Assembly (NCBI GenBank): GCA_964425635.1
Contig: CAYRMT010000002.1
Coordinates: 1-34,958 of the forward strand
Length of the DNA: 34,958 bases
Direction: 5' to 3'
Source of the DNA: an uncultured Gammaproteobacteria bacterium
GTDB lineage: Bacteria > Patescibacteriota > Microgenomatia > UBA12405
Below are positions 3 through 24,949 of the stretch, piece after piece; the first letter of the stretch is position 1, and each line of letters starts with the position of its first letter. The notes beneath the pieces are model-generated. The model saw only the letters and a list, made by a program, of their open reading frames with translations. It ran no database searches and was not told the DNA's origin. The translations under genes and the position numbers were made by a program.

Positions 3-1157
3 GACAATGTCGTCAAACGACGTGATGTCGTTGGTATCGACGGTTCTATTATTACTCATCCTACCGTTTGGCAAGCCTCTGGTCATGTTAAGAATTTTGC
101 CGATGTTATGGTTGAATGTAAATCATGCCATAAAAGATTTCGTCCCGACCTTCTCGACGATCCATCAAAATGTCCAGAATGTGGCGGTCAATTTACTGAA
201 GGTCGTAAATATAATATTTTATTTGAAACCAAAATTGGTGTTATTGAAGGTGAAAAACAACACGCTTATTTAAGGGGAGAAGCTTGTCAAACTATTTATC
301 TTGATTTTAAAAACATTGTCGATTCTTGCCGCGTCAAAATTCCTTTTGGTATTGCCCAAATCGGAAAAGCTTTCAGAAATGAAATCACTCCCAAAAACTT
401 CCTTTATCGCACCCGTGAATTTGAGCAATGGGACATTCAATATTTTGTCCATCCAACTGAAATGGATAAATGGTTTGAATACTGGAAAGAAAATCGTATG
501 ACTTGGTATAAAAAAATATTTAATGATTCCAAAAATTTAAGATTTAGAGAACACGCCAAAGATGAATTAGCTTTTTATGCCAAAAAAGCTTTTGATATCG
601 AATATAACGCTCCCTGGGGCTGGGCAGAAATGGAAGGAATCCATTGGCGTTCAGACTATGATTTAACTCAACATTCCAAATTCAGCAAACAAGATCTTTC
701 TTACCTCGATCCAGTCACCCACGAAAAATATCTACCCCACATCACCGAAACCTCCGGCGGTGTCGATCGCAGTTTCTTTTTTATACTTCTCGATGCTTAT
801 CAAGAAGAAAAAACAGAATCAGGTGAAATTCGTACCGTTTTAAAAATAAACCCCAAGATTTCTGCCTATAAAATGGCCATTCTTCCACTTGCTGCCAACA
901 AACCAGAATTAATCAAAAAAGCTGAAAATATTTTTGGGAAATTAAATGAAAAATATTCAGTTGATTGGGATGATAGCAGTAATATAGGTAAAAAATATCG
1001 TCGTCAAGATGAAATTGGTACTCCTTGGTGTCTAGTTGTTGATTATCAAACCCTAGACGACAACACTGTTAGTATTCGTGATCGAGACACTATGAAGCAA
1101 ATTCGAATCAAAACCGATGAAGTTGACAATTGGTTGGAAAAACAGTTAAATAAATAG
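3..1157 (+). CDS. glyQS: glycine--tRNA ligase (GlyQS type), 5'-truncated at window edge
   Basis: The frame is open from nt 3 (DNVVKRRDVVGIDGSIITHPTVWQASGHVKNFADVMVECKSCHKRFRPD), so the ATG at 108 is internal. The WxASGHV motif, CxxC..CxxC insert and C-terminal anticodon-binding region (KKYRRQDEIGTPWCLVVD) are typical of class II GlyRS. Confidence 0.9.
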   Translation, partial: DNVVKRRDVVGIDGSIITHPTVWQASGHVKNFADVMVECKSCHKRFRPDLLDDPSKCPECGGQFTEGRKYNILFETKIGVIEGEKQHAYLRGEACQTIYLDFKNIVDSCRVKIPFGIAQIGKAFRNEITPKNFLYRTREFEQWDIQYFVHPTEMDKWFEYWKENRMTWYKKIFNDSKNLRFREHAKDELAFYAKKAFDIEYNAPWGWAEMEGIHWRSDYDLTQHSKFSKQDLSYLDPVTHEKYLPHITETSGGVDRSFFFILLDAYQEEKTESGEIRTVLKINPKISAYKMAILPLAANKPELIKKAENIFGKLNEKYSVDWDDSSNIGKKYRRQDEIGTPWCLVVDYQTLDDNTVSIRDRDTMKQIRIKTDEVDNWLEKQLNK

Positions 1158-2998: not shown

Positions 2999-4651
2999 GT
3001 GCAAAATTCAAGACCAAAAATATTATCTATTGCCCTAACTTTTTGTTTTATGGTCGTTTCTTTTCGTTTTTTTTATTGGCAAGTTTTAAAAGCTCCAGAA
3101 TTAAAAGAAAAAGCTAAAAATCAAACTTATAAACTTGAAAAAATATTGCCAGAACGCGGGAAAATATATTCTTCCGACAATTTTCCTCTGGTTCTCAATC
3201 AAACAACCTATCAGCTTTCCCTTTATAAACCAAATTTTAAAGAAGATTTGAATACAATTTTAGACAAAATCGAACAAGTCTATACAAACTTTAAAACTGA
3301 AAATAGCGAAGCTCTAGAAAAATTTAAAAATAATCCCAACCAAAAATGGATAACCTTCAATTCTGCTCTAAATGAAAAACAAAAAGATTTACTTAATATA
3401 CCTGGAATTGAATTTCAAAAAATAGAAAAAAGATTTTACCCAGAAAATTCTATGGCTAAAGATATTTTAGGAACCATCGGTAAAGATTTTAGTGGAAACC
3501 AAATTGGATATGGCGGACTAGAAGCTTTTTATCAAAAACAATTACAGGGAAAAACCGGTTTTATTTGGGGACCTCAAGATGCCACCGGAAAAACTATTTT
3601 AAATAAAAAAAACTGGAGTTCTGATGCCATCAATGGTAGAAATATTTTTACCAACATCAATCGCAGTGCTCAATTTTATGTAGAAAAACTTCTTCAAAAA
3701 GGCATTAATGATTTCTCTGCTGATTCCGGTTCAATTACCATCATTCAACCAAAAACTGGAGCGATTTTAGCTATAGCCTCTCTTACCGCCACCAGTTCTG
3801 CTACCCCAAGTTCAATTAGAAACCCAGCTATTTCTGACCTTTTCGAACCTGGATCAATTTTTAAACCATTAGTAGTTTCTATGGCTCTCGACACCAAAAC
3901 CATCGACACTAATTATACTTGCATCAAATGTAACCAACCTCATATTATTGGCAAATACAATATCAGTAATTGGGACAATGAATTTCACGCTAACTCTAGT
4001 CTTCAAGATATTATAAAAAATTCCGATAATATCGGCATGAGTTATATTATTGCCAGACTTGGCCTTGATAATTTTTTAAATTATTATCAAAAACTAGGAC
4101 TCACCCAAAGAACTGGTATTGATCTTCAAGGCGAAGCCAAACCAACCGTCAAAACCGAATGGCCAGAAATTGATTTAGCCACCGCTTCTTTTGGACAGGG
4201 GGTTGTTGTTACTCAAATCGGGATGCTTCAAGCCTTCAATGTTATTGCCAACGATGGTATTTTGGTTAAACCTAAAGTTGTCAATTATTTCACCGAAAAT
4301 AATAAAATTATTAAAAATAAAAATCAAAAAGAAACACAAGTTTTTAACCCACAAACAATAAAAGAAATTAAATCTATTTTAAAATATTCAGTCGAAAACG
4401 GTGTTGTGGCTAAAATGAAACCAGAAAATCTTGAAGTTTGTGCTAAAAGTGGCACTGCACAAGTAGCTATTAGTGGTAGTTATGAAAATAATTCTTCAAC
4501 CATTGCTTCATACATTGGTTTTTCACCTTGTTATAATCCTAAATTTACTATGATTGTGACTATTAATAACCCAAAAACATCACCTTGGGGATCAAGTACA
4601 GCCGCTCCAATTTGGTATGAATTGGCATCAAAATTAAACGATTTGTTATAA
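2999..4651 (+). CDS. ftsI: penicillin-binding protein 2 / FtsI-type peptidoglycan D,D-transpeptidase
   Basis: GTG start, N-terminal TM helix, and transpeptidase motifs SIFK (SxxK), SDN (SxN) and KSGT. Confidence 0.9.
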   Translation: MQNSRPKILSIALTFCFMVVSFRFFYWQVLKAPELKEKAKNQTYKLEKILPERGKIYSSDNFPLVLNQTTYQLSLYKPNFKEDLNTILDKIEQVYTNFKTENSEALEKFKNNPNQKWITFNSALNEKQKDLLNIPGIEFQKIEKRFYPENSMAKDILGTIGKDFSGNQIGYGGLEAFYQKQLQGKTGFIWGPQDATGKTILNKKNWSSDAINGRNIFTNINRSAQFYVEKLLQKGINDFSADSGSITIIQPKTGAILAIASLTATSSATPSSIRNPAISDLFEPGSIFKPLVVSMALDTKTIDTNYTCIKCNQPHIIGKYNISNWDNEFHANSSLQDIIKNSDNIGMSYIIARLGLDNFLNYYQKLGLTQRTGIDLQGEAKPTVKTEWPEIDLATASFGQGVVVTQIGMLQAFNVIANDGILVKPKVVNYFTENNKIIKNKNQKETQVFNPQTIKEIKSILKYSVENGVVAKMKPENLEVCAKSGTAQVAISGSYENNSSTIASYIGFSPCYNPKFTMIVTINNPKTSPWGSSTAAPIWYELASKLNDLL

Positions 4652-4664: not shown

Positions 4665-5966
4665 ATGGTTCAAAAATTCAAAAACGTCCTTATACATTTA
4701 CCAAAAAGTTTTTTTTACAATTTAAAGTACGGTTTTCCAAGTAAAAAATTAACTTTAATTGGTATCACTGGAACAGACGGCAAAACTACTACCTGCACCC
4801 TAGTTAATGAAATATTAAAACAATCTGGGCTAAAGACTGGATTAATTACTACTATTGGTGCAAAAATTGGGGATAAAGAAATAGATACTGGGTTTCACAC
4901 CACCACACCAGACCCGTCTATTCTTCAAAAAATTTTCAGCGACATGGTGAAAGCTGGCATTACTCATGTTGTCTGCGAAGTCACTTCACACGCCCTTGAT
5001 CAATATCGTTTTTGGGGTTGTAACTTTGAAATTTCTGGTATCACCAACACTTCACACGAACACCTTGATTATCATAAAAATTTAGAATCGTACATTGGAA
5101 CTAAATCTAAACTTTTCTCAATTTCTAAAAGCGCTATTCTGAACAAAGACGATCAATCGTTCGACTTAATAAAAAAACAAATTAAAATTCCTTTTAAAAC
5201 ATTTGGTATAAAAAAAACCTCAGATTATCAAGCCCAAAAAATTAAATTAGACTCAAATTCATTAAGTTTCCATGTTAATGGCCAAAAATTTATCACCGAT
5301 AGTAATTATGAATATCAAGTTTACAATATCCTTTTAGCAACCGCAATTTGTTATAAACTAGGAATAAAATCAGAAATAATTCAACAGGTAATAAAGCATT
5401 TTCCAGAAACAAAAGGTCGTCGAGAAGAAGTCCAAAATGAACTCAAATTTAAAACCATTATCGATTTTGCTCACACCCCATTTGCTCTTGAATCATCGCT
5501 TTCTTCACTCAAAAAAACTAATCCAGGAAAAACTATAGTCATTTTTGGAGCCACTGGTGGGCGAGATCAAAGTAAACGCCCAATAATGGGGGAAATCGTT
5601 TCTAAATTGGCCAATATAGCGTTAATCACATCCGACGACACCAGAAATGAAAAAATAGAAAATATCAACAAACAAATAATAAATGGTATTGATCCCAAAA
5701 AATCAGAACTAATTGATTATCAAGAAATTAAAAATAAAAAACAAATTCAAAAAGTAATTGAATTATCTAATAAAAAATTTATATATTTCAATATTCCCAA
5801 TCGTCAAGACGCATTTAATTTGGCCATAAAATTAGCTCAACCAGACGATGTCGTTATTGCTTGCGGTAAAGGCCACGAAACTACTATTCTTCACGGAAAT
5901 ACCGAGTATCCCTGGTCAGAAGCAGAGGCCTTCAGAACCGCTTTCAGGCTTCGAAAAACAAAATAA
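4665..5966 (+). CDS. murE: MurE-type Mur ligase (UDP-MurNAc-L-Ala-D-Glu:diamino acid ligase) lacking most of the N-terminal domain
   Basis: P-loop GITGTDGKTTT, HALDQYR, TNTSHEHLDYH, DFAHTP, GATGGRDQSKRP, TSDDTRNE (equivalent of the MurE DNPR motif) and GKGHE. Only about 35 residues precede the P-loop. Confidence 0.85.
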   Translation: MVQKFKNVLIHLPKSFFYNLKYGFPSKKLTLIGITGTDGKTTTCTLVNEILKQSGLKTGLITTIGAKIGDKEIDTGFHTTTPDPSILQKIFSDMVKAGITHVVCEVTSHALDQYRFWGCNFEISGITNTSHEHLDYHKNLESYIGTKSKLFSISKSAILNKDDQSFDLIKKQIKIPFKTFGIKKTSDYQAQKIKLDSNSLSFHVNGQKFITDSNYEYQVYNILLATAICYKLGIKSEIIQQVIKHFPETKGRREEVQNELKFKTIIDFAHTPFALESSLSSLKKTNPGKTIVIFGATGGRDQSKRPIMGEIVSKLANIALITSDDTRNEKIENINKQIINGIDPKKSELIDYQEIKNKKQIQKVIELSNKKFIYFNIPNRQDAFNLAIKLAQPDDVVIACGKGHETTILHGNTEYPWSEAEAFRTAFRLRKTK

Positions 5967-5967: not shown

Positions 5968-6558
5968 ATGACAAAATTTAATTTAAAAAATACCAAAAGT
6001 ATTGATCAAAATTACCAAAATGGTCTTCTTCCTCAAAGGAATGACAAAAATTTATTTTATTCCCAAACCAGTTGTCGGTCTAATTTAAAAAATTTCAACT
6101 TAAGTTCTGAAAATCGTCGAATTTTAAGAAAAACAGAAGATTTCACCTTCGAAAAAATAAATCTAAAAGATTTCAACTACGATTCAAAAATTCAAAAAGA
6201 AATTACCATCTGGATAAAAACACTCGGTTGGAATTTTCCAGTCAGTTCAATAAAAAATGTTTTTAAAAACCATATTTTTAATTATCTTTACATATGGAAA
6301 GATGAACAAAAAAATATCATTGCCTATTCTCTTTGCTATTTTTCAAAAAACATTAGTCATATTGCCTATGTTTTTTATAATCCAGAATTCACCCATGGAA
6401 ATCTACCTATCCGTTTAGTTTTACAAGTCATCATCGACAGTCAAGAATTAGGTTTAAATTTTTGTTATCTCGGTCGCTTCTCTAAAAACACCGGTTTTTA
6501 TAAACGTAACATGCCAGGTTTTGAATATTATAAAGATAATCAATGGACTAAATTATGA
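5968..6558 (+). CDS. arginyl/leucyl-tRNA--protein transferase (ATE/Bpt) family homolog, minimal form
   Basis: The first ATG outside murE is at 5968, 1 nt after the murE stop; the 5848 start in the ORF track lies inside murE. Resembles Bpt/ATE: FNLSSENRRILRK (like the ATE_N LSRSQRR segment), and SHIAYVFYNPEF...LPIRLVLQVI...GLNFCYLGRFSKNTGFYKRNMPGFEYY...QW (like ATE_C FYDPE...YLGY...YK..F.P.E). ATGA overlap with the next gene. Confidence 0.6.
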   Translation: MTKFNLKNTKSIDQNYQNGLLPQRNDKNLFYSQTSCRSNLKNFNLSSENRRILRKTEDFTFEKINLKDFNYDSKIQKEITIWIKTLGWNFPVSSIKNVFKNHIFNYLYIWKDEQKNIIAYSLCYFSKNISHIAYVFYNPEFTHGNLPIRLVLQVIIDSQELGLNFCYLGRFSKNTGFYKRNMPGFEYYKDNQWTKL

Positions 6559-7928
6559 AAATACACATTTTAGGAATCGCCGGCACCATGACTGCTTCTC
6601 TAGCTGTCGCCCTTAAAAGAGAAGGTCACATTGTTTCTGGTTCCGACCAGGAAAAAATATATCCACCTATTAGTACTATCCTTAAAAAAGCCAATATTAA
6701 AATTAATTCATCCAAAATTGATTCCGATATAGATTTAGCTATCATCGGATCATCGTTCTCTAATTTTAAAAGAACTAAAGAAGAATTTGATCAAATTAAA
6801 AAATTAAAAATCAAATATGTTTCTGCCAGTGAATTTGTTGCTCAAAATTTGGGTAAAGAAAATTCAATTTTAATCGCTGGAACTTATGGTAAAACCACTA
6901 TTTCCTCCCTTGTTTCTTGGATTTTCGATCAAGCCAATTTAAAACCTAACTACATGTTTGGCGGGAAAGCCTTAAACCGCTTCCCATCAGTCAATAATTC
7001 ACCATCAAACTGGTCTATTATTGAAGCAGACGAATCAATTAATGGCCTCGATACTCAAGCTAAATTTTTATACTACCCGGTTAAATTTTTACTTTTAACC
7101 AGTGCTGATTGGGAGCACAAAGATTCTTATTCCACTGAAATCGAAAACTTTAATGCCTTCAAAAAATTAATTTTAAATATCCCCAAAGACGGCATTTTGT
7201 TTATCAATTCAAAAGGATATCAAACTAAAGAATTAAGTCTTTATTCAAAATCAAAAATAATTACCTACAATTCATCCACATCAGACTATTTTATTAAAGA
7301 TATAAAAATTAAAAAAAATTATACTATTCTATTCTGTCAAACTCCTAAAAATATTATTGAAATTAAAACCAAACTTATTGGTCAATTTAATTTTGAAAAC
7401 ATTTTGGCTGCCATTACTATCACTGATAGTTTAAACATTCCTCAAACTAAAATTAAACAGGCTATCTTAAAATTTAAGGGTATCAATCGTCGAATCGAAA
7501 AAATTTATGATTATAAAAAAATTATAATTTTTGACGATTTTGCCCAATCTCCCAATAGAATTAAATCAACGATTGAGGCTGTAAAATTACATTTTCCTAA
7601 AAACAAAATAAAAGTTTTATACCAACCCCACGCTTCTTTTATTCAACACAAAAAAAGTTTAAAAGAATTCAAAAACGTTTTTGATTCAGTTTCTGAAGTT
7701 GTTTTATCAAAATTAAGTTTTAATAATAAAATTAAAAAAAACAATCGTGTCACTGCCAAAAATTTTAAAGAGGTTATAGGTGATAAATTAATTTATCTTC
7801 CTGTTGACGAAGATATCCCTTCCTTTTACCAAAAAAATTTAACCCCAGGTGACATATTAATCAATATGAGTTCTGGTGGTTTAAGTGGAAATAAAATCAT
7901 CAAATCAATTATTAATTCTTTAAAATAA
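6555..7928 (+). CDS. mpl: Mur ligase of the Mpl/MurC family, closest in appearance to UDP-N-acetylmuramate:L-alanyl-gamma-D-glutamyl-diamino acid ligase (Mpl)
   Basis: N-terminus MKIHILGIAGTMTASLAVALKREGHIVSGSDQEKIYPPISTILKKANI, P-loop GTYGKTT, IIEADESI...KFLYYP, ADWEHKDSY, and C-terminus GDILINMSSGGLSGNKII. From memory these parallel E. coli Mpl (YPPMS, IIEADEYD, MSNGGFGG) better than MurC. Mpl versus MurC specificity cannot be settled by eye. Confidence 0.8.
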   Translation: MKIHILGIAGTMTASLAVALKREGHIVSGSDQEKIYPPISTILKKANIKINSSKIDSDIDLAIIGSSFSNFKRTKEEFDQIKKLKIKYVSASEFVAQNLGKENSILIAGTYGKTTISSLVSWIFDQANLKPNYMFGGKALNRFPSVNNSPSNWSIIEADESINGLDTQAKFLYYPVKFLLLTSADWEHKDSYSTEIENFNAFKKLILNIPKDGILFINSKGYQTKELSLYSKSKIITYNSSTSDYFIKDIKIKKNYTILFCQTPKNIIEIKTKLIGQFNFENILAAITITDSLNIPQTKIKQAILKFKGINRRIEKIYDYKKIIIFDDFAQSPNRIKSTIEAVKLHFPKNKIKVLYQPHASFIQHKKSLKEFKNVFDSVSEVVLSKLSFNNKIKKNNRVTAKNFKEVIGDKLIYLPVDEDIPSFYQKNLTPGDILINMSSGGLSGNKIIKSIINSLK

Positions 7929-7931
7929 TTT

Positions 7932-9260
7932 ATGTCCAGATACATTATTAATGGCGGCAAACCACTCAAAGGTGAGGTTTCGATTAGAGGTGCTAAAAAT
8001 GCCAGCTTTAAACAAATAATTGCTTCCATGCTAACCAATCAAACTGTCCGATTAAATAATGTTCCTCAAATTTCTGATGTAAAAATAACCACCAGTATTG
8101 CCAAAAATCTTGGTTGTCGAATAACTCAAACAGGGGATCATAGTCTTGAATTAACTACTCAAAAAATTATTAATTCTACTGTTCCTAGTGGTACTGGTGA
8201 AAAATCTAGATCATCATTTATGTTTGTTGCTCCTTTACTTACCAGAACTGGAACCGCCATCGTTCCAATTCCAGGTGGTGATAAGCTTGGCGATCGACCA
8301 TTGGACCGTCTTTTCGACTGTTTCTCTCAAATGAATATTAAAGTGTCTGAAAACGAAAACATTATTACTTTTAATACTGACAAAATTATTGGTACTCACT
8401 ACACTTTTACCAAACCATCACACACCGTCACTGAAGCTATTATCATGACTGCCGTTCTTGCCAACGGTGAAACAATCATTGACAATGCCGCCCTTGAACC
8501 AGAAATTGACGATTTAATTTTAATGTTAAATCAAATGGGGGCTAATATTCAAAGAGATTCCCAAAATAATAAAAGAATAGTTGTTCAGGGAGTTTCTAAA
8601 TTGAACGGAATAGAACACAACGTAATTTGTGATCGAAACGAAATTGTCACTTTTGCTTGTGCTGCCTTAGCCACCAAGGGCTCCGTTTCTATTTTTAGAG
8701 TCAAACCAAGCGTTGTTCAAACATTTTTAGAAATTATTAAAAAAATGGGAGCCAAAGTTAAAACCGGTAATGACGAAATTTATGTTGAATGGGTTAAACC
8801 ACTAACCAGTATTAATATTGAAACCGAACCAGAACCAGGATTTATGACCGATTGGCAGGCAATTTTTTCAGTCCTTTTAACTCAAAGTGTCGGTTGTAGT
8901 TCCATTATTGAAAAAGTCTATCCTAGTCGATTTCAACACATCGAAAATCTTAAAAAAATGGGAGTTAAAGTTAATTTTTTCAATCCAGAAATAAATAATC
9001 CCAAAGAATACTATCAGTTTAACCCAGAAAGTGACCGATTAGAATATTTCCATGGTGTTAAAATTTATGGCCCAACTAAATTAAAACCAGCCAATTTCAT
9101 TATTAAAGATCTTCGGGCAGGAGCTTCAGCTACAATTGCTGCTTTAACCGCATCAGGAAAATCAACTATTGATGGAGTTGAATATATTGAACGCGGATAT
9201 GAAAAATTAGCCGAGCGTCTTTGGTCTTTAGGTGCTAACATAGAATATATAAAAACATAA
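7932..9260 (+). CDS. murA: UDP-N-acetylglucosamine 1-carboxyvinyltransferase (MurA), Asp-type active site
   Basis: Full-length enolpyruvyl transferase: ISGAKNA-like IRGAKNAS, the active-site loop PIPGGDKLGDRPLD, and the C-terminal LRAGASATIAAL and ERGYEKL motifs. Confidence 0.95.
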   Translation: MSRYIINGGKPLKGEVSIRGAKNASFKQIIASMLTNQTVRLNNVPQISDVKITTSIAKNLGCRITQTGDHSLELTTQKIINSTVPSGTGEKSRSSFMFVAPLLTRTGTAIVPIPGGDKLGDRPLDRLFDCFSQMNIKVSENENIITFNTDKIIGTHYTFTKPSHTVTEAIIMTAVLANGETIIDNAALEPEIDDLILMLNQMGANIQRDSQNNKRIVVQGVSKLNGIEHNVICDRNEIVTFACAALATKGSVSIFRVKPSVVQTFLEIIKKMGAKVKTGNDEIYVEWVKPLTSINIETEPEPGFMTDWQAIFSVLLTQSVGCSSIIEKVYPSRFQHIENLKKMGVKVNFFNPEINNPKEYYQFNPESDRLEYFHGVKIYGPTKLKPANFIIKDLRAGASATIAALTASGKSTIDGVEYIERGYEKLAERLWSLGANIEYIKT

Positions 9261-9264: not shown

Positions 9265-10299
9265 ATGATTCATTTATACTTAGGTCTACTTCTCTTTTCT
9301 TTTTTAATAACCAGTATTTTGGTTGTCCCTTTTATTAATCTCCTTTATAAATTTAAATTTCAACGACAAACCCAAAAAACTACCGATTTTCAAAACAAAA
9401 GAGCTACTATTTTTGACAAATTTCACAACCAAAAATCAGGCACGCCAGTCGGTGGTGGCTTATTGATCATCGTTACTGTTTCTATTCTTTTTATTTTACT
9501 TTTCCCTATTCTCAAATTTTCCAAAATTTTTATTTCATCAAACTACACCATCACTCACGAAATCGCCATTCTATTTTTTACTTTTATCAGTTTTGGATTA
9601 CTCGGTCTTTACGATGACATTCTAAAATTTTTTGGATTCAAAAAAACCGGATTTTTCGGATTGAGAATGATCTATAAGTTAATATTACAATTAATAATTT
9701 CCCTAATCATTTCTCTAATGATTTATTTTCAACTAAGAATTGATTTTATCTATTTGCCCTTTTTTGGAGTTATTAATTTAGGGTGGCTTTTTATTCCAGT
9801 TTCAGTCGTTTTTATTACTGGGTTTGCTAATTTCTTTAATATCACCGATGGTCTTGATGGTTTATCATGCGGTCTTCTAATGTTTGCTCTTTTTGCTTTT
9901 TGGATTCTTGCCAGCACTTCAATGGACACTGTTCTTTCATCTTTTTTAGCCCTCTGGATTGGATCTCTAATTGCATTTCTTTATTTTAATGTTTACCCAG
10001 CCAGAATCTGGCTCGGCGATGTTGGTTCGCTTTCTTTTGGTGCCACTTTTGCCGTAATTGCTTTACTTCTAGGCAAAGTGGTTCCTTTACTTATTGTTGG
10101 GTCCCCATTTATCATTGAAGGATTATCCAGTACTATTCAATTATTCAGTAAAAAATATTTTCACAAGAAAATTTTTCCAGCTGCTCCAATTCATTTAACT
10201 CTTCAAAATTTAGGATGGGAAGAGCCAAAAATTGTTTTTAGAGCTTGGTTGGCTGGAATTATATTAGCAGTTTTTGGACTATGGTTAGGACTAAATTAG
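9265..10299 (+). CDS. mraY: phospho-N-acetylmuramoyl-pentapeptide transferase (MraY)
   Basis: Polytopic membrane protein with the NITDGLDGL, GDVGSL and QLFSKK..KIFPAAPIHL motifs. Confidence 0.95.
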   Translation: MIHLYLGLLLFSFLITSILVVPFINLLYKFKFQRQTQKTTDFQNKRATIFDKFHNQKSGTPVGGGLLIIVTVSILFILLFPILKFSKIFISSNYTITHEIAILFFTFISFGLLGLYDDILKFFGFKKTGFFGLRMIYKLILQLIISLIISLMIYFQLRIDFIYLPFFGVINLGWLFIPVSVVFITGFANFFNITDGLDGLSCGLLMFALFAFWILASTSMDTVLSSFLALWIGSLIAFLYFNVYPARIWLGDVGSLSFGATFAVIALLLGKVVPLLIVGSPFIIEGLSSTIQLFSKKYFHKKIFPAAPIHLTLQNLGWEEPKIVFRAWLAGIILAVFGLWLGLN

Positions 10300-10820
10300 A
10301 ATTACAACAAGAGATAGAAAAATATATTGGCCTACCTTATAGTAAAAATATTCTTAAAGACAGAAAAATAATCAAAGAACAATTTCTTGGAGGTAAGGGT
10401 AATTGTCTCCAAATTGCCACTGAAACCATCAGGCTCGCTCAAAAACAAAAAATAGATTTAACTAAATTAAACAATCAAGAATTTTATAATTTCCAAAAAA
10501 AGAATCATATTGGTATCGATTGCTCTGGTCTTGCTTGCCAATTATTAAACTTTTATTTTAGTTCTGAATTAAATCCTCGCAAAACTTCTGCCAATATGCT
10601 CACTTCCGCTCCAATTTCCAAAAAAATAAAACCAAACGAAATTAAAACAGGGGATTTGGTTCGACAAAAAAACGGTCATCACGTTTTATTTATAATTGAA
10701 AAAGAAGGCGATAAAATTCTTTATGTCGACAGCTCTCGCGAAGGCAGGGGAGTCAAATATAGTGTCGCCAATATCACCGACAAATCATTTATCCATCAAG
10801 GCTTTTTTAGATTGAATTAA
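10281..10820 (+). CDS. NlpC/P60-family cysteine peptidase-like protein, no signal peptide
   Basis: The first ATG is at 10281; the 10245 start in the ORF track is a TTG deep inside mraY. GIDCSGLACQLL carries the nucleophile Cys and GDLVRQKNGHHVLFII the His, matching the NlpC/P60 DCSGf / GDLvf..HVgiy pattern. The hydrophilic N-terminus suggests a cytoplasmic location. Confidence 0.65.
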   Translation: MVRTKLELQQEIEKYIGLPYSKNILKDRKIIKEQFLGGKGNCLQIATETIRLAQKQKIDLTKLNNQEFYNFQKKNHIGIDCSGLACQLLNFYFSSELNPRKTSANMLTSAPISKKIKPNEIKTGDLVRQKNGHHVLFIIEKEGDKILYVDSSREGRGVKYSVANITDKSFIHQGFFRLN

Positions 10821-10824: not shown

Positions 10825-10983
10825 TTATTTCTCTTCAATTAATTCCCTGTATTTCAACGGTTTTAAAGATAAAATCTCAACCTCAGTTCCACATTCAGGG
10901 CACTCAATTATATCTCCAACCATCGTGGCTTCTATTAATTCAATTTCTGTTTTACAATCAGGACAAATAACTTTTTCGTTCAT
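10825..10983 (-). CDS. LysW-like zinc-ribbon small protein (candidate amino-group carrier protein); absent from the supplied ORF track
   Basis: My translation gives 52 aa: MNEKVICPDCKTEIELIEATMVGDIIECPECGTEVEILSLKPLKYRELIEEK. It has an ATG start, a TAA stop and two CPxC knuckles. The layout mirrors Thermus LysW as I recall it (CPECGAEL...GELVVCEDCGAELEV..LDPLRL + acidic tail), but the tail ends EEK rather than EDWGE. Confidence 0.55.
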   Translation of the reverse strand: MNEKVICPDCKTEIELIEATMVGDIIECPECGTEVEILSLKPLKYRELIEEK

Positions 10984-11023
10984 ATTTTATTAAAATTAAT
11001 AACTAGTATAATTAAACTATTAT

Positions 11024-11845
11024 ATGGCAAATACACCTTTAATTAAATTAGAAAATGTTTATCTCAAAAGAGAAGACTTAAACGAAACTGGTTCTGCTAA
11101 AGATCGGGCTATGTTTTTTCAAATCGAAAATTTAAAAAAACAGGGTTTTAAAAATGCCGTAATTTCTAGTACTGGTAATGCTGCTATTTCTGCTGCCCAT
11201 TTTTGCCATTTAAATCAAATTGATTTAACTATTTTTGTTTCACCAAAAATCAATAAAGCTAAATTTGATTTACTTAAAAAAGATGGTGGTCAAATTTTTA
11301 TTACTGATCAACCCATCAGTGAATCTATAAAATTTTCCAAAAAAAATCATACTTATCTTCTTCGTCAATCAACCGATCCTAGTGCCCTAATTGGCTACCA
11401 AGAAATCGGCAAAGAATTAATGAATGAATTACCCCAAATTACCAGTATTTTCATCCCAGTTGGTAGCGGTACTACTCTTTTAGGAATCTCCCAAGTACTG
11501 CCATCATCAGTAAAAATCTATGCCATTCAACCAGCTAGCAATTGCCCCTTGTCTAAATTTTTTGATTCAAACTACCAATCAGAAACAGAAAATATAACCG
11601 ATGCCTTATCTGCTAAATTTCTTCCTTTAAAATCTCAAATAATTTCAACCATCAAAAATAGTGGCGGAACTGGTTTAGTTATTCAAAATAATGAAATTTT
11701 AGAAGCCCAAAAAATACTAGATTCAAATGAAATTAAAACATCTCTTGAGGGTGCCATGGCTTTAGCAGGCTTTAAAAAAGCTATCAAAAATAACCTAAAT
11801 ATTGGTAATTATCCAGTCATAATTTTAACCGGATGTCAAAGATAA
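11024..11845 (+). CDS. fold-type II PLP-dependent enzyme, threonine synthase / Trp-synthase-beta (PALP) family, short form
   Basis: TPLIKLENVYLKREDLNETGSAKDR carries the PLP lysine, followed by ISSTGNAAISAAHF and IPVGSGTTLLG (phosphate-binding loop). At 273 aa it is shorter than typical ThrC. Confidence 0.75.
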   Translation: MANTPLIKLENVYLKREDLNETGSAKDRAMFFQIENLKKQGFKNAVISSTGNAAISAAHFCHLNQIDLTIFVSPKINKAKFDLLKKDGGQIFITDQPISESIKFSKKNHTYLLRQSTDPSALIGYQEIGKELMNELPQITSIFIPVGSGTTLLGISQVLPSSVKIYAIQPASNCPLSKFFDSNYQSETENITDALSAKFLPLKSQIISTIKNSGGTGLVIQNNEILEAQKILDSNEIKTSLEGAMALAGFKKAIKNNLNIGNYPVIILTGCQR

Positions 11846-12939
11846 ATTTAGAAAAAATTATCAACAATTCTCCTTATATTTTCTTTTTTTTAGTGGTCGA
11901 TAAATATTTAGACATTGATATCCCTAAATTAAAAAACTTTGAAAAAATCTATCTTTCAGACTATCCGTCGATCAAAGAAAAAAACAGTGGCAAATTATTA
12001 TCAAATTCAAAAGTTATTGATTTTATTCTTAAAAAATCTCAAAAAGCCAAACTCACACCTGCTATCATTCCTTTCAAACCATCTGCCAAAATTGACTTGA
12101 TTTGTCAAAAAAATAATTGGGTAAGTATTAGTAATCCAGGCCCCATTAATCGTTTTTTGGAAGACAAAATTAAATTTGCCAAACTTTGTCAAAAATATAA
12201 ATTATCAACTATTCCTTTTTCTATCGATACTTTCTCACAAAAAAATTTTTTGAAATACCAAAAGCTGTACGGTAAAAAATTAGTTATTCAAACCCATTTT
12301 GGTTGGGCAGGTAATAGTACATTTTCGGCCGAATCTTGGGATGAAATTAAAAACAAAATTTCTTCTGGTATCATCGTAAAATACAGTCCTTTTATTCAAT
12401 CTTCTTACTCTTTACTAAATAATTGCTGTCTTACCAAATTTGGTTTAATTCAAAGCCCGCCCGCCCTTCAATACACCGGAATTTCTCCATACACCAAAAA
12501 TCCTTTTACCACCGTCGGTCGCCAATGGCCATCCTTTGCTCCATTAAAAACAAAAGGTGAAATTAATAAAATAACTGAAAAATTCGGTAAAATTTTAAAA
12601 GAAATTGGCTACAAAGGTTTTTTTGGTCTCGACTTTTTGGTCTATAAAAACAAAGTTTTTTTATTAGAATGCAATCCTCGTTTAACTGCCTCTTTTGGTT
12701 TTTACACAACAATAGAAGAAAAACAAAATATTACCCCTCTCTTTTATTTTCATCTTGCCGAATTTTTAAAACTTGATTATCAAATCGATATTAAAAAAGA
12801 AAAGACCAGATTTAACAATAAAAAAATTATCGGTTCAGAACTAACTCCTAAAGATAAAAATAATCATACCTGTCAAAAATTAAACTTTAATTTTCCTTTA
12901 TCAAAAACCACTAATCCTATTTCTCTAAAAATTAAATGA
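11833..12939 (+). CDS. ATP-grasp family carboxylate-amine ligase, specificity unknown
   Basis: C-terminal ATP-grasp core: KLVIQTHFGWAGNSTF, GYKGFFGLDFLVYKNKVFLLECNPRLTASFG. Overlaps the upstream PLP gene by 13 nt and the ftsW start by ATGA. Does not look like Ddl or a Mur ligase. Confidence 0.7.
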   Translation: MSKINLEKIINNSPYIFFFLVVDKYLDIDIPKLKNFEKIYLSDYPSIKEKNSGKLLSNSKVIDFILKKSQKAKLTPAIIPFKPSAKIDLICQKNNWVSISNPGPINRFLEDKIKFAKLCQKYKLSTIPFSIDTFSQKNFLKYQKLYGKKLVIQTHFGWAGNSTFSAESWDEIKNKISSGIIVKYSPFIQSSYSLLNNCCLTKFGLIQSPPALQYTGISPYTKNPFTTVGRQWPSFAPLKTKGEINKITEKFGKILKEIGYKGFFGLDFLVYKNKVFLLECNPRLTASFGFYTTIEEKQNITPLFYFHLAEFLKLDYQIDIKKEKTRFNNKKIIGSELTPKDKNNHTCQKLNFNFPLSKTTNPISLKIK

Positions 12940-14102
12940 AAGAAACTAAATCCCCACTTTTATTTTTAGTTTTCAGTTTGGTCTTTATTGGACTAATTTT
13001 TATTTCCATCTCATCATTAAGTGAAGCCAGCTCATCAATTGGAGACAAATTTTTTTACATTAAAAAACAAGTATTTTGGCTAATTTTAGGAATATTTTCT
13101 TTTTATATAACTTCCAAAATAAATATTAAAACCATTAAAAAATTTTCTTTCGCTCTTTATACTATTTCCATCCTTGGACTAATATTAGTTTTAATTCCAA
13201 GTTTAGGCAACGAAGCCCTCGGTGCCAGACGCTGGCTAAATTTAGGTTTCACCAGTATTCAACCTTCAGAAATTTTAAAATTAACCTCCATTATTTATTT
13301 TTCTTTTCTTTTTTCAAAAAAAGAAAATCTTCATATAAAAAATCTTATTTTTTATCTTGGTTTGCCATTCATTTTAATAATTATCGAACCAAATTTAAGC
13401 ACCGCTATTTTAATTTCAGCTATTGTCAGTTCCATTTATTATCTTTCTGGAGGAGATATTGTCCCTTTGTTTAGTATTTTTAGTATTATTCTAATTGTCA
13501 GTATTCCCTTAATTTTTTTATCACCATACAGATCAGCCAGATTAAAAACTTTTTTAGAACCGCAGCAAAATCAAGAAACTTCCTCATATCACAGCAACCA
13601 AATAATTTTAACCCTATCTTCTGGAGGAATTTTTGGTAAAGGTTTTGCCAATTCAGACCAAAAATACAAATTCCTTCCTAAAATTTCCACCGATTCAATC
13701 CTTGCTGTTATTGGTGAAGAAGTTGGTTTTATAGGAATTTTTGCAGTTCTTTTAATTTATCTTTCTTTAATAAATTATCTTTTAAAATTTTCTCAAACAA
13801 TCGACGATCCATTTCAAAGTTTAATAGTATCCGGAAGCGCCTGTTGGATTGCTTATCAAAGTTTAATCAATATTTCTGCCATCACTGCTCTTATTCCACT
13901 CACCGGGGTCACTCTTCCATTTATTTCCTATGGCGGCTCTTCACTTATTACACTTTTTGTCGTTATTGGTCTGGTTAGAAATATCGAAAAAAACCAAAAA
14001 AAATTGTTATACTCAAAGAGTGAACAAGACAAAAAAGACGATCATAATCACCGGAACACATCTAACACCAGCCCTAGAACTAATTCGTCAATTGAAAGCT
14101 GA
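12936..14102 (+). CDS. ftsW: SEDS-family peptidoglycan glycosyltransferase FtsW
   Basis: Ten-TM-type protein with RWLNLGFTSIQPSEILKL, SDSILAVIGEEVGFIG and LPFISYGGSSL motifs, at the dcw position before murG. The hydrophilic tail overlaps the murG start region. Confidence 0.9.
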   Translation: MKETKSPLLFLVFSLVFIGLIFISISSLSEASSSIGDKFFYIKKQVFWLILGIFSFYITSKINIKTIKKFSFALYTISILGLILVLIPSLGNEALGARRWLNLGFTSIQPSEILKLTSIIYFSFLFSKKENLHIKNLIFYLGLPFILIIIEPNLSTAILISAIVSSIYYLSGGDIVPLFSIFSIILIVSIPLIFLSPYRSARLKTFLEPQQNQETSSYHSNQIILTLSSGGIFGKGFANSDQKYKFLPKISTDSILAVIGEEVGFIGIFAVLLIYLSLINYLLKFSQTIDDPFQSLIVSGSACWIAYQSLINISAITALIPLTGVTLPFISYGGSSLITLFVVIGLVRNIEKNQKKLLYSKSEQDKKDDHNHRNTSNTSPRTNSSIES

Positions 14103-18893: not shown

Positions 18894-21713
18894 ATGTCTA
18901 AATTTAAAAATCTTCCAAATAATATCAATTTTCCTTCAATGGAAGAAGAAATCAATTCTTTTTGGAAAGAAAATAAAATTTTTGAAAAATCAGTTGATCA
19001 AAGATCAGACGACAATGCCTACACTTTCTACGATGGCCCTCCATTCATAACTGGTTTACCTCATCACGGACATTTATTATCCAGTATCGCCAAAGACATT
19101 ATTCCTCGTTATCAAACAATGAAAGGTAAAAAAGTTAAACGAGTTTGGGGTTGGGATTGTCATGGTCTTCCTGCTGAAAATAAAGTTGAAGAAAAACTTG
19201 GTTTAAAATCTAAAAAAGATATCGAAGCCCTCGGTATAAAAAAATACATCGATGAATGTTATGCCTACGTTCAAAACGTATCTCAAGAATGGCCCTGGTA
19301 TATTGATCATGTCGGTCGTTGGGTAGATTATGAAAATGCCTATAAAACCATGGATTTAAATTTCATGGAGAGTGTTATGTGGACATTTTCCGAAATTTAC
19401 AAGAAAGGTTTAATTTACAAAGGCCGCCGCATTTCTCTATATTGTCCTCGATGTTCCACCCCACTTTCTAATTTTGAAATTGCTATGGATAATTCCTACA
19501 AGGAAGTTGAAGATCCAGCCATTTCCATTAAATTTAAATTAAAAGATCGAGATGCTTATATTTTGGCTTGGACCACCACCCCCTGGACTCTTCCGGGAAA
19601 TTTAGCCCTAGCTGTCAATAAAAACGAAACTTATGTTGAAGTTTCTGTAAATCAAGAAAGTATAATCTTAGCCAAAGATAGGATTGAATCTGTTTTAAAT
19701 AATCAAGAATATAAAATAATTAAAGAATTTAAAGGTCAAGAATTAATTAACCTTTCTTACGAACCTCTTTATAAATTTTTCGAAACAACAGAAAAAGATT
19801 ATAAAATCTATCATGCCAATTTTGTTTCTATGGCCGATGGTACTGGAATTGTTCATATCGCTCCAGGTTTCGGTGAGGATGATTCCGCTTTAGGTAAAGA
19901 AAATAATTTATCAGTTATTGATCATATTGATGATGAAGGAAAAATAATTGATAAAGTCACACCATTTGTCGGTCTTTTTGTTAAAAAAGCTGACCCCTTA
20001 ATTATTGATGATTTAAAAAACAGAAATTTACTTTTTAAAGAAGAAAAAATAATCCACAGTTATCCTTTCTGTCATCGATGTGCCACTCCATTAATCTACA
20101 AATCACAAACTGCTTGGTATCTCAATGTTCAATCTATAAAAAATGATATGAAGACTACTAATCAAAAAATTAATTGGATTCCAGAACACATCAAAGATGG
20201 TCGTTTTGGACAAGGAATTGAATCTGCTCCAGATTGGTGTCTTTCTCGATCTCGTTACTGGGCATCACCAATTCCTGTTTGGGAATGTGATTGTGGTGAA
20301 ATTTATGTTCCTGAATCAATTGCTGATTTAGAAAAAAGATCAGGTAGAAAAATAACCGACCTTCATAAACCAGAAATTGACGAGGTTGCTATAAAATGCT
20401 CTAAGTGTGAAAAGGAAGTTCACCGAGTTCCAGAAGTTTTAGACGGCTGGTTTGAGTCTGGTGCCATGCCTTATGGTGAACGTCATTATCCATTTGAAAA
20501 CAAAGAACAATTTGAAAAAGAATTTCCAGCTGATTATATAGTTGAGTATATTGGCCAAACTCGTGGTTGGTTTTACACTCTTCATGTTTTATCAAATGCT
20601 CTTTTTAAATCAGAATCTTTCAAAAATTGTGTTGTCACCGGTACTATTATGGGCACCGATGGCCGTAAAATGAGCAAACTCTTCAAAAATTATCCTGACC
20701 CAAAAGTAGTTCTTCAAAAATATGGTGGTGAAGCTATGCGTCTCTATTTAATGAGTGGCGTCATTATGGTCGGTGAAAATATGAATATGAACGAAAAAGA
20801 AATAGAAGATAAAGTTAAATTTGTTCTTCTGCCTCTTTGGAATTGTTTTAAATATCTCACCACTTATGCTCAAATGCACAATTGGACTCCAAACTTAAAT
20901 TCTATTAACGGCTCTACCAATATTCTTGATCAGTGGATTATTACCAGAACCGATCAATTAACTCAAGAATTTGCCCAAGAATTAGATAAATATATTATTC
21001 CCAATGCTGTTAAATTAATAACTCCTTACATCGAAGATTTATCTCGTTGGTATATTCGTCAATCACGAGATCGATTTGTTAATGGAGATAAAGAAGCTCT
21101 TCAAACTTTATGGCAAGTTCTTGTTCAATTTACTAAAACAGCAGCTCCATTAATACCATTTATCACTGAATATTTTTATCAAAATTTAGTTTTACCTTTT
21201 GATTCAAAAGCCTTAGAATCTGTTCACTTAGAACTTTATCCAGAAACAAAACCAATTAATCAACAATTATTAATTGATATGGTTTATGTTCGAGAAATTT
21301 GTGAGCAGGGGAACATGATAAGAAAAACTAATAATCTAAGTACTAGACAACCCCTATCAAAAGCCATTATTAATAATTCTCAAAAAATAGATCTAAATTT
21401 AAATTTAATTGAAATTATTAAAAATGAATTAAACATTAAAGATGTCGAAATTATTTTAGGAAAAAATAATTTAACAGTCAGTCTTGACACCAATATTACT
21501 CCCGAATTAAAAGCTGAAGGTGATGCTCGTGATTTAATTCGCCAAATTCAAAGTCTTCGTAAAGAAAAACAATTAAATCTAAAAGATCAAATTAAAATTT
21601 TTGCACCAACCTGGCCAGTTGAATTTGAAAAAGAAATTTTAAACAAAACATTAGGGGTTAGTATTGAAAAATCAGAAAATGTCACGATCTCTATGGCTAC
21701 CAACACTAATTAG
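18894..21713 (+). CDS. ileS: isoleucine--tRNA ligase, eukaryote-like (type 2) form
   Basis: YDGPPFITGLPHHGHLL (HIGH region) and KMSKLFKNYPDP (KMSKS region) match the eukaryote-like pattern YDGPPFATGLPHYGH / KMSKRLKNYPDP. Also has a CP1 editing domain (TTTPWTLPGN) and CxxC pairs. Confidence 0.95.
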   Translation: MSKFKNLPNNINFPSMEEEINSFWKENKIFEKSVDQRSDDNAYTFYDGPPFITGLPHHGHLLSSIAKDIIPRYQTMKGKKVKRVWGWDCHGLPAENKVEEKLGLKSKKDIEALGIKKYIDECYAYVQNVSQEWPWYIDHVGRWVDYENAYKTMDLNFMESVMWTFSEIYKKGLIYKGRRISLYCPRCSTPLSNFEIAMDNSYKEVEDPAISIKFKLKDRDAYILAWTTTPWTLPGNLALAVNKNETYVEVSVNQESIILAKDRIESVLNNQEYKIIKEFKGQELINLSYEPLYKFFETTEKDYKIYHANFVSMADGTGIVHIAPGFGEDDSALGKENNLSVIDHIDDEGKIIDKVTPFVGLFVKKADPLIIDDLKNRNLLFKEEKIIHSYPFCHRCATPLIYKSQTAWYLNVQSIKNDMKTTNQKINWIPEHIKDGRFGQGIESAPDWCLSRSRYWASPIPVWECDCGEIYVPESIADLEKRSGRKITDLHKPEIDEVAIKCSKCEKEVHRVPEVLDGWFESGAMPYGERHYPFENKEQFEKEFPADYIVEYIGQTRGWFYTLHVLSNALFKSESFKNCVVTGTIMGTDGRKMSKLFKNYPDPKVVLQKYGGEAMRLYLMSGVIMVGENMNMNEKEIEDKVKFVLLPLWNCFKYLTTYAQMHNWTPNLNSINGSTNILDQWIITRTDQLTQEFAQELDKYIIPNAVKLITPYIEDLSRWYIRQSRDRFVNGDKEALQTLWQVLVQFTKTAAPLIPFITEYFYQNLVLPFDSKALESVHLELYPETKPINQQLLIDMVYVREICEQGNMIRKTNNLSTRQPLSKAIINNSQKIDLNLNLIEIIKNELNIKDVEIILGKNNLTVSLDTNITPELKAEGDARDLIRQIQSLRKEKQLNLKDQIKIFAPTWPVEFEKEILNKTLGVSIEKSENVTISMATNTN

Positions 21714-22674
21714 TTTATTAATCCTTTTTTGTATTAATATTTTAATGGTCAGTTCAGTGGCCCCAAGTTTGGTCGGTAAACAATTAATTGCTTGGGGAAT
21801 TGGAATAATTTTATTTTGCGTCGGCAAACAAATAAATTTAAAACAATTAAGTTCCTACAAATGGCCAATTTTTATAGTTTGTAATATTTTTTTATTCTTA
21901 CCAATTATATTAAATAGTATTACTCGCGGTTCCCGTAGATGGATTTATATTGCCGGACAAACCATTCAACCATCAGAATTCGTTAAACCTTGGCTCATGT
22001 CATTTTTGGCTAATACCAACTTTCCTCTGCTTCATTTTATACCCGTAACTATTATCATGGCCCAACCAGATCTTGGGAGTGCTATTTCCGTTTTCTTTTT
22101 AATTATTCCTGTTATTTTATATAATAAAAAGTTACTTCGATTGTCGATCGTTTTGGGATTAATTTTTATTTTAGTTTCACCATTAATTTATAGATATGGT
22201 CTTCATGATTATCAACAAAAACGAATAAGTACCTTTTTAAATCCAAAAGCTGATCCTCTAGGCGAAGGCTATAACGTTATTCAATCCCAAATTGCCATTG
22301 GGTCTGGTGGCATTTTTGGCAAAGGTTATAAAAAAGGAACACAAGGACAATTACTTTTTTTACCCGAAAAACACACCGATTTTATGTTTGCAACCACCGC
22401 TGAAGAATTAGGCCTAATTGGTATTTCCATTGTTTTATTCGCTTATTTTCTATTAATCAACACCCTTTTTAATAAAGCTTTTTCCACTAAAAATCGCCCT
22501 CTTTTTATCTTTACCCTCGGCATTGCCATTCAAATCTGGATGCAAGCTTTCGTAAATATTGGTATGAATATCGGCCTGCTTCCAGTCACTGGCATACCTC
22601 TTCCTTTTATTTCCGTCGGAGGTTCTTCACTCATGGCTTTATTGTTTTCACTTGGAATCGTCTACTCTTCCTAA
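21664..22674 (+). CDS. rodA: SEDS-family protein (RodA/FtsW/SpoVE), second copy
   Basis: GSRRWIYIAGQTIQPSEFVKP, HTDFMFATTAEELGLIG and LPFISVGGSSL motifs. The start overlaps the ileS 3' end (alternative ATG at 21679). The rodA label is given only because ftsW is already assigned in the dcw cluster. Confidence 0.85.
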   Translation: MKNQKMSRSLWLPTLISLLILFCINILMVSSVAPSLVGKQLIAWGIGIILFCVGKQINLKQLSSYKWPIFIVCNIFLFLPIILNSITRGSRRWIYIAGQTIQPSEFVKPWLMSFLANTNFPLLHFIPVTIIMAQPDLGSAISVFFLIIPVILYNKKLLRLSIVLGLIFILVSPLIYRYGLHDYQQKRISTFLNPKADPLGEGYNVIQSQIAIGSGGIFGKGYKKGTQGQLLFLPEKHTDFMFATTAEELGLIGISIVLFAYFLLINTLFNKAFSTKNRPLFIFTLGIAIQIWMQAFVNIGMNIGLLPVTGIPLPFISVGGSSLMALLFSLGIVYSS

Positions 22675-24875: not shown

Positions 24876-24949
24876 GGTTGTTTAGCTCAGTTGGTTAGAG
24901 CGTTCCGTTCACATCGGAGAGGTCACAGGTTCGAGTCCTGTAACAACCA
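24876..24949 (+). tRNA. tRNA-Val (anticodon CAC)
   Basis: Manual cloverleaf: acceptor GGTTGTT/AACAACC, D arm GCTC-AGTTGGTTA-GAGC, anticodon arm TTCCG-TTCACAT-CGGAG, T arm ACAGG-TTCGAGT-CCTGT, discriminator A. CCA is not encoded. Confidence 0.9.

Follow-up and report, generated by a model that had tools for sequence, protein, structure and literature searches.

To our knowledge, carriers of the LysW type are known only from the biosynthesis of lysine and arginine and from a few natural-product pathways of Streptomyces. Every characterised member of the LysW family is a covalent amino-group carrier (PMC12998189), and in the characterised carriers the substrate is attached to the C-terminal glutamate of the tail (PMC12998189). 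We analysed a 34,958-nt stretch of contig CAYRMT010000002.1 (in its whole length, the window), in which a 52-codon open reading frame (ORF) for a LysW-like zinc-ribbon protein lies on the minus strand inside a division and cell wall (dcw) gene cluster. Sequence conservation and gene order suggest that the LysW-like protein is dedicated to a conserved module for peptidoglycan precursors in the candidate phyla radiation (CPR), or Patescibacteria. The fold of this protein, and possibly its logic, are known; the tail, the partner enzymes and the pathway context are new, and a literature search found no description of the module or of LysW homologues ending in Glu-Glu-Lys (E-E-K).

The LysW-like ORF is a real protein gene under strong constraint. 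Scanning one genome per species with a degenerate pattern gave 105 confirmed relatives, of which 80 were retained, nearly all labelled Shapirobacteria or Microgenomates. The reading frame is unbroken in 81 of 81 species-level sequences, with amino acid identities of 59-98%. Over the gap-free 46-codon core of 66 sequences, the mean proportions of synonymous and non-synonymous differences (pS and pN) are 0.80 and 0.21, and the median dN/dS, taken from unsaturated pairs only, is about 0.20. Entropy at codon positions 1, 2 and 3 amounts to 0.67, 0.42 and 1.34, respectively, and the remaining five frames of the same stretch contain 41-407 stops over the 66 sequences. The median identity to the window protein is 70.6%, against 75% for FtsZ and 73% for FtsA; it is lower for the enzymes encoded next to the small gene (58% for the PALP-family enzyme, 53% for the ATP-grasp ligase and 54% for the NlpC/P60 peptidase). 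The original prediction had proposed this 52-codon ORF on the minus strand, and its position and sequence agree with ours; the intact frames and the dN/dS of about 0.2 show purifying selection. Its description as unannotated was mistaken: the same protein is gene-called on 14 public contigs, under the NCBI name 'lysine biosynthesis protein LysW [Candidatus Shapirobacteria bacterium]'. The protein has a net charge of about -7 and four cysteines (C7, C10, C28 and C31). The G+C content of the window is about 30%; a promoter and terminator scan around the LysW-like gene gave counts no better than those of shuffles, the consensus scan being uninformative in such AT-rich DNA.

Sequence profiles and a predicted structure make the assignment of a LysW fold to the zinc-ribbon protein solid. 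Pfam PF21344 matches it with 45.1 bits (gathering threshold 27; E = 7e-12), and the family profile (A1), searched against the PDB, matches LysW of Thermus (3wwl, E = 3e-8) and Thermococcus (5k2m, E = 4.5e-8). The AlphaFold2 (AF2) model, with a mean predicted local distance difference test (pLDDT) score of 85, has five strands. When the model was compared with the PDB by Foldseek, the best six matches were LysW chains, with template modelling (TM) scores of 0.69-0.75, and the seventh match had an E value of 0.67. The resemblance to LysW/ArgW put forward in the original prediction thus stands for the fold, by PF21344, the PDB profile search and Foldseek alike. It does not extend to the curated NCBIfam models, neither of whose cut-offs is reached in a scan with LysW-family models: TIGR01206 (lysW) gives 37.2 bits against 53.2, and NF041070 (LysW/ArgW) 34.4 bits against 75.

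The LysW-like gene keeps constant company. About 115 loci, ranging from Shapirobacteria to CPR2, were long enough to judge, and in all of them the LysW-like gene divergently adjoins a gene for a pyridoxal 5'-phosphate (PLP) enzyme followed by one for an ATP-grasp ligase (Table 1); the small gene is on the opposite strand in every locus examined. The two divergent start codons are typically 27-48 nt apart in relatives. Wherever the flank suffices, the 80 species-level loci read MraY> NlpC-like> <LysW-like / PALP> ATP-grasp> FtsW> MurG>. In the window, the surrounding genes follow a dcw-type order (FtsI, MurE-like, MurC-like, MurA, MraY ... FtsW, MurG, FtsA, FtsZ), and the module stands between mraY and ftsW, at the usual place of murD. 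The geometry described earlier is thus confirmed, including the 203-nt gap between the NlpC/P60-like gene and the PLP gene, the placement on the minus strand amid the FtsI to FtsZ genes, and the ATP-grasp gene after the PLP enzyme, whose start lies 850 nt from that of the small ORF. The divergent link to the PLP/ATP-grasp pair likewise holds in all sufficiently long loci, those of very distant relatives included. What had been overlooked are two further conserved partners, the NlpC/P60 peptidase and MurD.

Table 1. Positions of the LysW-like gene, its neighbours and other features mentioned in the text (aa, amino acids).
Sequence	Feature	Position	Strand	Remarks
Window	LysW-like ORF	10825..10983	-	ATG to TAA; 52 aa; encodes MNEKVICPDCKTEIELIEATMVGDIIECPECGTEVEILSLKPLKYRELIEEK
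Window	Divergent intergenic region	10984..11023		40 nt between the LysW-like and PLP-enzyme start codons
Window	Threonine-synthase-like fold-type-II PLP enzyme	11024..11845	+	273 aa
Window	ATP-grasp ligase	11833..12939	+	368 aa; overlaps the end of the PLP gene by 13 nt
Window	NlpC/P60 cysteine peptidase	10281..10820	+	179 aa, public gene call; longest ORF from TTG 10245
Window	MraY	9265..10299	+	Upstream flank of the module
Window	FtsW	12936..14102	+	Downstream flank of the module
Window	FtsI	2999-4651		
Window	MurE-like ligase	4665-5966	+	433 aa
Window	Gene between MurE-like and MurC-like	5968-6558	+	Longest ORF from 5848; about 196 aa
Window	MurC-like ligase	6555-7928		
Window	Second FtsW/RodA/SpoVE-family gene	21664-22674	+	Right after IleRS
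Window	Glycyl-tRNA synthetase match	108-1157	+	
Window	Two-domain hydrolase-like ORF	24923-27361	-	812 aa
Window	tRNA-Val call	24876-24950	+	
L119/L120	LysW-like and NlpC/P60 pair	7001-8081	Same strand	LysW-like tail ..FEEPEK; NlpC/P60 295 aa
L118	LysW-like and D-glutamate-cyclase-like pair	735-1145		LysW-like tail ..FEEEEK; MarR upstream

Outside Shapirobacteria the same genes recur in other surroundings, beside LysW-like homologues with identities of only 35-50%. The order in a CPR2 bacterium (L087) is NlpC/P60> Mur ligase> <LysW-like / PALP> ATP-grasp> away from any dcw cluster; in two other loci (L090 and L116), these five genes lie between mraY and ftsW. The adjoining Mur ligase passes the TIGR01087 MurD cut-off of 211.95, with 251.3 bits in L087 and 251.6 bits in L090. 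Two further loci (L088 and L089) read MraY> <LysW-like / PALP> ATP-grasp> FtsW>, and more module lineages are represented by L117 (67% G+C), L121 (with MraY and two FemAB genes) and L122. A metagenome scan was seeded with the alignment of a narrower '..PLEEEK' subgroup (A4), the broad E-E-K alignment (A3) being too divergent, and yielded 24 loci; all those long enough have the order ATP-grasp< PALP< / >LysW-like / <1.4-kb gene <NlpC-like, and are surrounded not by dcw genes but by FtsEX/PcsB-like, RF2, Nramp, PAP2 and GT4 genes. Because the synteny persists across lineages whose surrounding genes differ, it argues for a functional unit of the LysW-like protein, the ThrC-like PLP enzyme and the ATP-grasp ligase, usually with NlpC/P60 and often with MurD. 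A cytoplasmic NlpC/P60 usually flanks the LysW-like gene, as does MurD outside Shapirobacteria. In L119/L120 (54% G+C), the NlpC/P60 gene follows 40 nt after the LysW-like gene on the same strand, with neither the PLP enzyme nor the ATP-grasp ligase nearby, and its product and the CPR2 module peptidase are homologues (E = 4e-22). In L118, a D-glutamate-cyclase-like gene (PF14336, 57.7 bits) comes after the LysW-like gene. No MurD-like or MurF-like ligase was found in the 20-kb loci of 64 Shapirobacteria-type species, which have MurC-like and MurE-like ligases only. Neither ddl nor murB was seen in the window cluster.

The last residues of the tail are the most invariant part of the protein. 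Counted from the conserved 'PL', its tail has 11 residues (PLKYRELIEEK) and ends in lysine. The corresponding LysW tails, of which the alignment shows only part, presumably have 16 residues, PLRLEPAPEEAEDWGE in Thermus and PLTLEELPEVEEDWGE in Thermococcus. Only about four residues (I-E-E-K) protrude past the last beta-strand in the AF2 model. Among 22 diverse homologues (A1), E47, L48, E50, E51 and K52 are invariant. In the 81 species the tail is ELIEEK in 44 and ELVEEK in 20, the rest being close variants; the lysine is always retained, and the glutamate before it is now and then Q or T. An exhaustive profile search over 1.84 billion cluster representatives gave 666 matches, and tails were read in the best 150 of these: 43 are short proteins with E-E-K-type ends (..LEEEK, ..IIEEEK, ..FEEEEK), and 18 have EDWGE-like ends clearly apart from the E-E-K set. 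In two word-indexed searches, 209 of 214 short homologues had E-E-K-type ends, and the tail is kept in homologues at 35-50% identity. Judged by their sequences, LysW-like proteins with an E-E-K tail form a distinct clade, so far mainly in CPR/Patescibacteria of Microgenomates-type lineages. The tail called atypical in the original prediction (EEK and not EDWGE) is therefore real, and its invariance across a large clade makes it no local oddity.

The LysW-like and NlpC-like genes are convergent, with a gap of 4 nt in the window. At the same junction in L007-L086, the 3' ends overlap by 17-18, 32 or 41 nt in most relatives; no terminator-like hairpin was found. The invariant tail as a by-product of this overlap was considered and rejected, given that the window has none and that lineages with MurD or with nothing on that side retain the same tail. 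Fusions of the LysW-like domain to an enzyme were also sought among the long matches, and none was found; these matches consist of zinc ribbons in tandem or in multiple copies and of zinc-finger repeats unrelated to them. Some (P0247, P0248, P0265 and P0246) have two or three tandem LysW-type ribbons, and in P0247 (103 aa) the ..IEEEK end comes after the second ribbon only.

The catalytic motifs of all three partner enzymes are preserved. The PLP enzyme belongs to fold-type II (Pfam PALP, 152.7 bits), with an invariant PLP-lysine motif (N-x-x-G-S-x-K26-D-R) and S-S-x-G-N-A loop. Its profile (A6), searched against the PDB, finds threonine synthases first (2zsj with 99.8 bits, then 6cgq, 2d1f and 1uim), and as full-length matches these outrank dehydratases, SbnA and Ser/Asp racemases. 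It falls far short of the NCBIfam cut-offs for ThrC, dehydratase and SbnA alike, the best ThrC match giving 101.7 bits against 358; the phosphate-binding Arg of ThrC (NPxRxEGQK) is not conserved, and an invariant R114 stands seven residues upstream instead. From its sequence, the enzyme is ThrC-like by family. The ATP-grasp ligase (Pfam ATP-grasp_3, 31.3 bits; AF2 pLDDT 92) has an invariant Mg/phosphate motif, E279-x-N281-x-R283 ('ECNPRLTAS'; alignment A2). Its best NCBIfam match is the uncharacterised PRK06524 'biotin carboxylase' (103 bits against a cut-off of 684), and the top 50 Foldseek matches of its model are biotin carboxylase, PurK or PurD. By sequence, it finds only weak matches in the PDB to carbamoyl-phosphate synthetase (CPS), PurK and pyruvate carboxylase. 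LysX, ArgX or RimK orthology was rejected, as phmmer and profile searches against the PDB gave no such match even at E <= 10; the parallel with LysX/ArgX drawn in the original prediction is thus not supported for this ligase. The NlpC/P60 match is marginal (NLPC_P60, 24.1 bits against a gathering threshold of 23), and the catalytic G-I-D-C81-S-G motif and H134 are identical in 96 of 96 orthologues; no N-terminal hydrophobic stretch was seen in it by eye. Two different NlpC/P60 subtypes take the partner position, depending on the lineage.

Since covalent carriage is the only known role of LysW-fold proteins, and since the invariant part of this one is its extreme C-terminus, we tentatively favour a reading in which the LysW-like protein acts as a carrier or scaffold in the peptidoglycan-precursor module. 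We give this reading somewhat less than an even chance. The protruding tail, in its last four or so residues with the invariant terminal lysine, would be presented to the module enzymes. The ATP-grasp ligase would join an amino acid to it, most likely by acylation of the lysine epsilon-amine with a side-chain carboxylate such as the gamma-carboxylate of Glu, leaving the alpha-amino-acid end of the cargo free. The PLP enzyme would then edit or epimerise the tethered amino acid, and the NlpC/P60 enzyme, of a family typified by gamma-D-glutamyl-Lys/diaminopimelate (DAP) amidases, would release the product, D-Glu or an analogue, to feed a Mur-ligase step. The lysine epsilon-amine is preferred as acceptor because the ATP-grasp ligase resembles the clade acting on amine nucleophiles and small acids (biotin carboxylase, PurK, PurD and CPS) and because the lysine is more invariant than the glutamate before it; by analogy, this clade fits a lysine-amine acceptor better than activation of a protein carboxylate. 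D-Glu or an analogue is proposed as cargo because MurD, gamma-D-Glu-type peptidases and the D-Glu-cyclase-like gene share D-Glu chemistry. We infer that loading is covalent, where on the tail it takes place, which cargo is loaded and in which order the steps follow. Restricting the cycle to D-Glu makes it doubtful, and we hold the same doubt about the explicit sequence in which the ATP-grasp ligase tethers the cargo to the terminal lysine, the ThrC-like enzyme converts it, specifically from L-Glu to D-Glu, and the NlpC/P60 enzyme frees the product for MurD.

Several points weigh against such a cycle. The PLP enzyme is ThrC-like and not racemase-like, and epimerisation would be atypical of its family. 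The bond normally cut by NlpC/P60 enzymes joins gamma-D-Glu to an alpha-amine, whereas the cycle would need cleavage at an epsilon-amine. At about four residues, the flexible tail is very short; the LysW arm has roughly 10. MurD is not adjacent in Shapirobacteria, the lineage of the window included, nor in L088 and L089, and these two loci also have no NlpC/P60 within the 14 kb seen. The link to a D-Glu cyclase comes from a single 1.1-kb contig (L118).

The short tail and the pairing with a peptidase would also suit a protein that carries nothing. The zinc ribbon may instead be a regulatory or adaptor subunit, with the E-E-K tail as a pseudo-substrate that mimics the gamma-D-Glu-L-Lys end of a stem peptide; it might plug or gate the cytoplasmic NlpC/P60 enzyme, and possibly also MurD or the ATP-grasp ligase, and so protect UDP-MurNAc-peptide precursors or control the salvage of host-derived muropeptides. 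We consider such a regulator, its targets and either purpose unlikely, though to be taken seriously. The LysW-like/NlpC-P60 pair stands alone in L119/L120, the exposed tail is very short, the invariant placement on the opposite strand permits expression independent of the enzymes, and a cytoplasmic gamma-D-Glu peptidase in a precursor-synthesis operon would plausibly need restraint. However, the characterised LysW-fold proteins are all covalent carriers, and among the neighbours it is the PLP/ATP-grasp pair that is linked most tightly and most universally, not the peptidase, which is absent nearby in L088 and L089; an inhibitor has no obvious need for an ATP-grasp ligase and a PLP enzyme.

Another arrangement would keep the canonical attachment site. 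The encoded terminal lysine might mimic the pathway product, as in LysW-gamma-Glu-Lys, the last canonical intermediate, and cap an amino-group carrier protein (AmCP). A LysK-like NlpC/P60 enzyme would first trim this lysine to expose a C-terminal Glu, onto which the ATP-grasp ligase would load an amino acid through its alpha-amine. The ThrC-like enzyme would then make a Lys/DAP-like diamino acid on the cargo, for example by beta- or gamma-replacement with a side chain as nucleophile, and the peptidase would free the diamino acid for position 3 of the stem peptide. There is precedent in the tubulin tyrosine cycle, in which the encoded C-terminal residue is removed by the vasohibin peptidase and re-added by the ATP-grasp enzyme TTL, and in pearlin scaffold peptides, whose encoded C-terminal residues are reportedly removable and re-addable. 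The NlpC/P60 peptidase is the most widespread partner, present even where the other enzymes are not, and the PLP enzyme comes from a replacement/elimination family (with ThrC, SbnA and CysK matches). The attachment site of canonical AmCPs is the C-terminal Glu (PMC12998189), and the tail here is ...E-E-K with K as its most invariant residue. Against this, the ATP-grasp ligase shows no affinity to the RimK/LysX/TTL-type activators of protein carboxylates, among Mur ligases the conserved partner is MurD, which serves position 2, and not MurE, and some species have Q or T at the glutamate before the lysine. We regard this scheme as quite unlikely, though also to be taken seriously.

An ordinary LysW/ArgW of lysine or arginine biosynthesis, as NCBI and JGI name the protein ('lysine biosynthesis protein LysW' or 'alpha-aminoadipate carrier protein LysW'), is very improbable and effectively excluded. 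The names and a Pfam LysW domain above threshold speak for it. The protein falls under both curated LysW models, however, and has neither the EDWGE tail nor a C-terminal Glu; the adjoining ATP-grasp is not LysX-like, and the setting is always one of cell-wall genes. No LysX, LysZ, LysY, LysJ or LysK family member was found in the Pfam-annotated neighbourhoods, which are neighbourhoods only and not whole genomes, and no annotated neighbourhood has an AA-kinase, semialdehyde dehydrogenase, aminotransferase or M20 hydrolase. Curated cut-offs, tail and neighbours together thus rule out a canonical LysW. The name 'lysine biosynthesis protein LysW', widespread in CPR genomes, almost certainly assigns the wrong pathway; it is a systematic mis-annotation that inflates the apparent biosynthetic capacity of these genomes. 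Least probable of all, and effectively excluded, is an ORF that arose by chance in an AT-rich gap between genes: although the ORF is short and under the usual ORF-track cut-offs, and small ORFs are plentiful in AT-rich genomes, its 81 intact frames, its low dN/dS, its variation biased to third positions, its hundreds of homologues and its confident fold prediction all speak against this.

Other features of the window deserve mention. The MurE-like ligase aligns to MurE models from about position 77-97, and its N-terminal UDP-binding domain is apparently missing; with FtsI ending just before it, there is no room upstream. The gene between the MurE-like and MurC-like genes is kept at the same position in 61 related loci plus L088/L089. 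Its product weakly matches Pfam ATE_C (21.8 bits, below the gathering threshold of 25) and an NCBIfam arginyltransferase model (31.7 bits); it could be an aminoacyl-tRNA transferase of the Fem/ATE-like kind, with the stem peptide as its substrate. Besides the dcw FtsW, there is a second FtsW/RodA/SpoVE-family gene. The glycyl-tRNA synthetase match begins only at about model position 129 of 454, in an ORF preceded by a stop codon 107 nt from the start of the window, and its N-terminal part is missing, split off or separately encoded. The two-domain ORF combines 3-keto-disaccharide-hydrolase-like and LCAT/PGAP1-like alpha/beta-hydrolase domains, and its 3' end overlaps the tRNA-Val call by 28 nt. 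Among the related loci, L011, L013-L017 and many more have a CPR-type dcw cluster yet are titled 'uncultured Gammaproteobacteria bacterium', likely a taxonomic mislabel of metagenome-assembled genomes.

The E-E-K clade brings an invariant tail and a fixed place among peptidoglycan genes to a large group of uncultured, host-dependent bacteria. If its members are carriers, they would constitute a new route by which a stem-peptide amino acid is made or delivered, and would explain the gap at the murD position of these dcw clusters. The D-Glu cycle, if true, would be the first mechanism of the amino-group-carrier type outside lysine/arginine and secondary metabolism. It would also add a new branch to peptidoglycan-precursor synthesis, which may take the place of MurI and perhaps, in Shapirobacteria, of part of the MurD step. 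Regulation of a cytoplasmic NlpC/P60 enzyme by a pseudo-substrate would likewise be a new role for the LysW fold. The module is a small, experimentally tractable system of four or five proteins.

Compared with LysW/ArgW of Thermus thermophilus, Sulfolobus/Sulfurisphaera and Thermococcus kodakarensis, the protein shares the four-cysteine zinc-ribbon domain at 32-48% identity, has TM scores of 0.69-0.75 to 3wwn_B, 3wwl, 5eio_C, 5k2m and 3vpb_E, and is of similar size and strongly acidic; it also lies beside genes for an ATP-grasp ligase and a hydrolase, and the same logic of loading, modification and release is possible. It differs in its tail, which falls five residues short of theirs and closes with an invariant E-E-K in place of EDWGE and its terminal Glu. 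Its apparent partners are a ligase resembling biotin carboxylase and CPS, a ThrC-like PLP enzyme, NlpC/P60 and MurD, in place of LysX/ArgX, LysZ, LysY, LysJ and LysK, and its setting is peptidoglycan synthesis in CPR bacteria, whereas LysW/ArgW serve lysine and arginine biosynthesis.

YkfC-type enzymes are cytoplasmic NlpC/P60 gamma-D-Glu-L-Lys endopeptidases. The module peptidase resembles them in having no obvious signal peptide, and type-B module peptidases (L087, L090 and L119) share their classical 'WGG...DCSG' core; in contrast, the module peptidase is fixed beside a LysW-like protein ending in Glu-Lys and beside biosynthetic genes, not recycling genes. Enterococcus faecium Rac/Asl_fm pairs a racemase with an ATP-grasp side-chain ligase, and Xanthomonas MurD2/MurL is an alternative route to D-Glu. 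Both encode an editing enzyme and an ATP-dependent ligase or epimerase beside Mur genes, as here, and supply or install a D-amino acid of the stem peptide, including by ligation onto the Lys epsilon-amine, but neither has a protein carrier, a ThrC-like PLP enzyme or NlpC/P60. In pearlin biosynthesis and in the AmCP pathways of Streptomyces, a gene-encoded peptide or protein is a reusable handle to which a C-terminal amino acid is added, modified and cut off. The proposed cycle would share this use of a small encoded protein as a reusable C-terminal handle; those pathways, however, employ tRNA-dependent PEARL or LysX-type ligases to make natural products, whereas here an ATP-grasp ligase of another clade would act in primary cell-wall synthesis.

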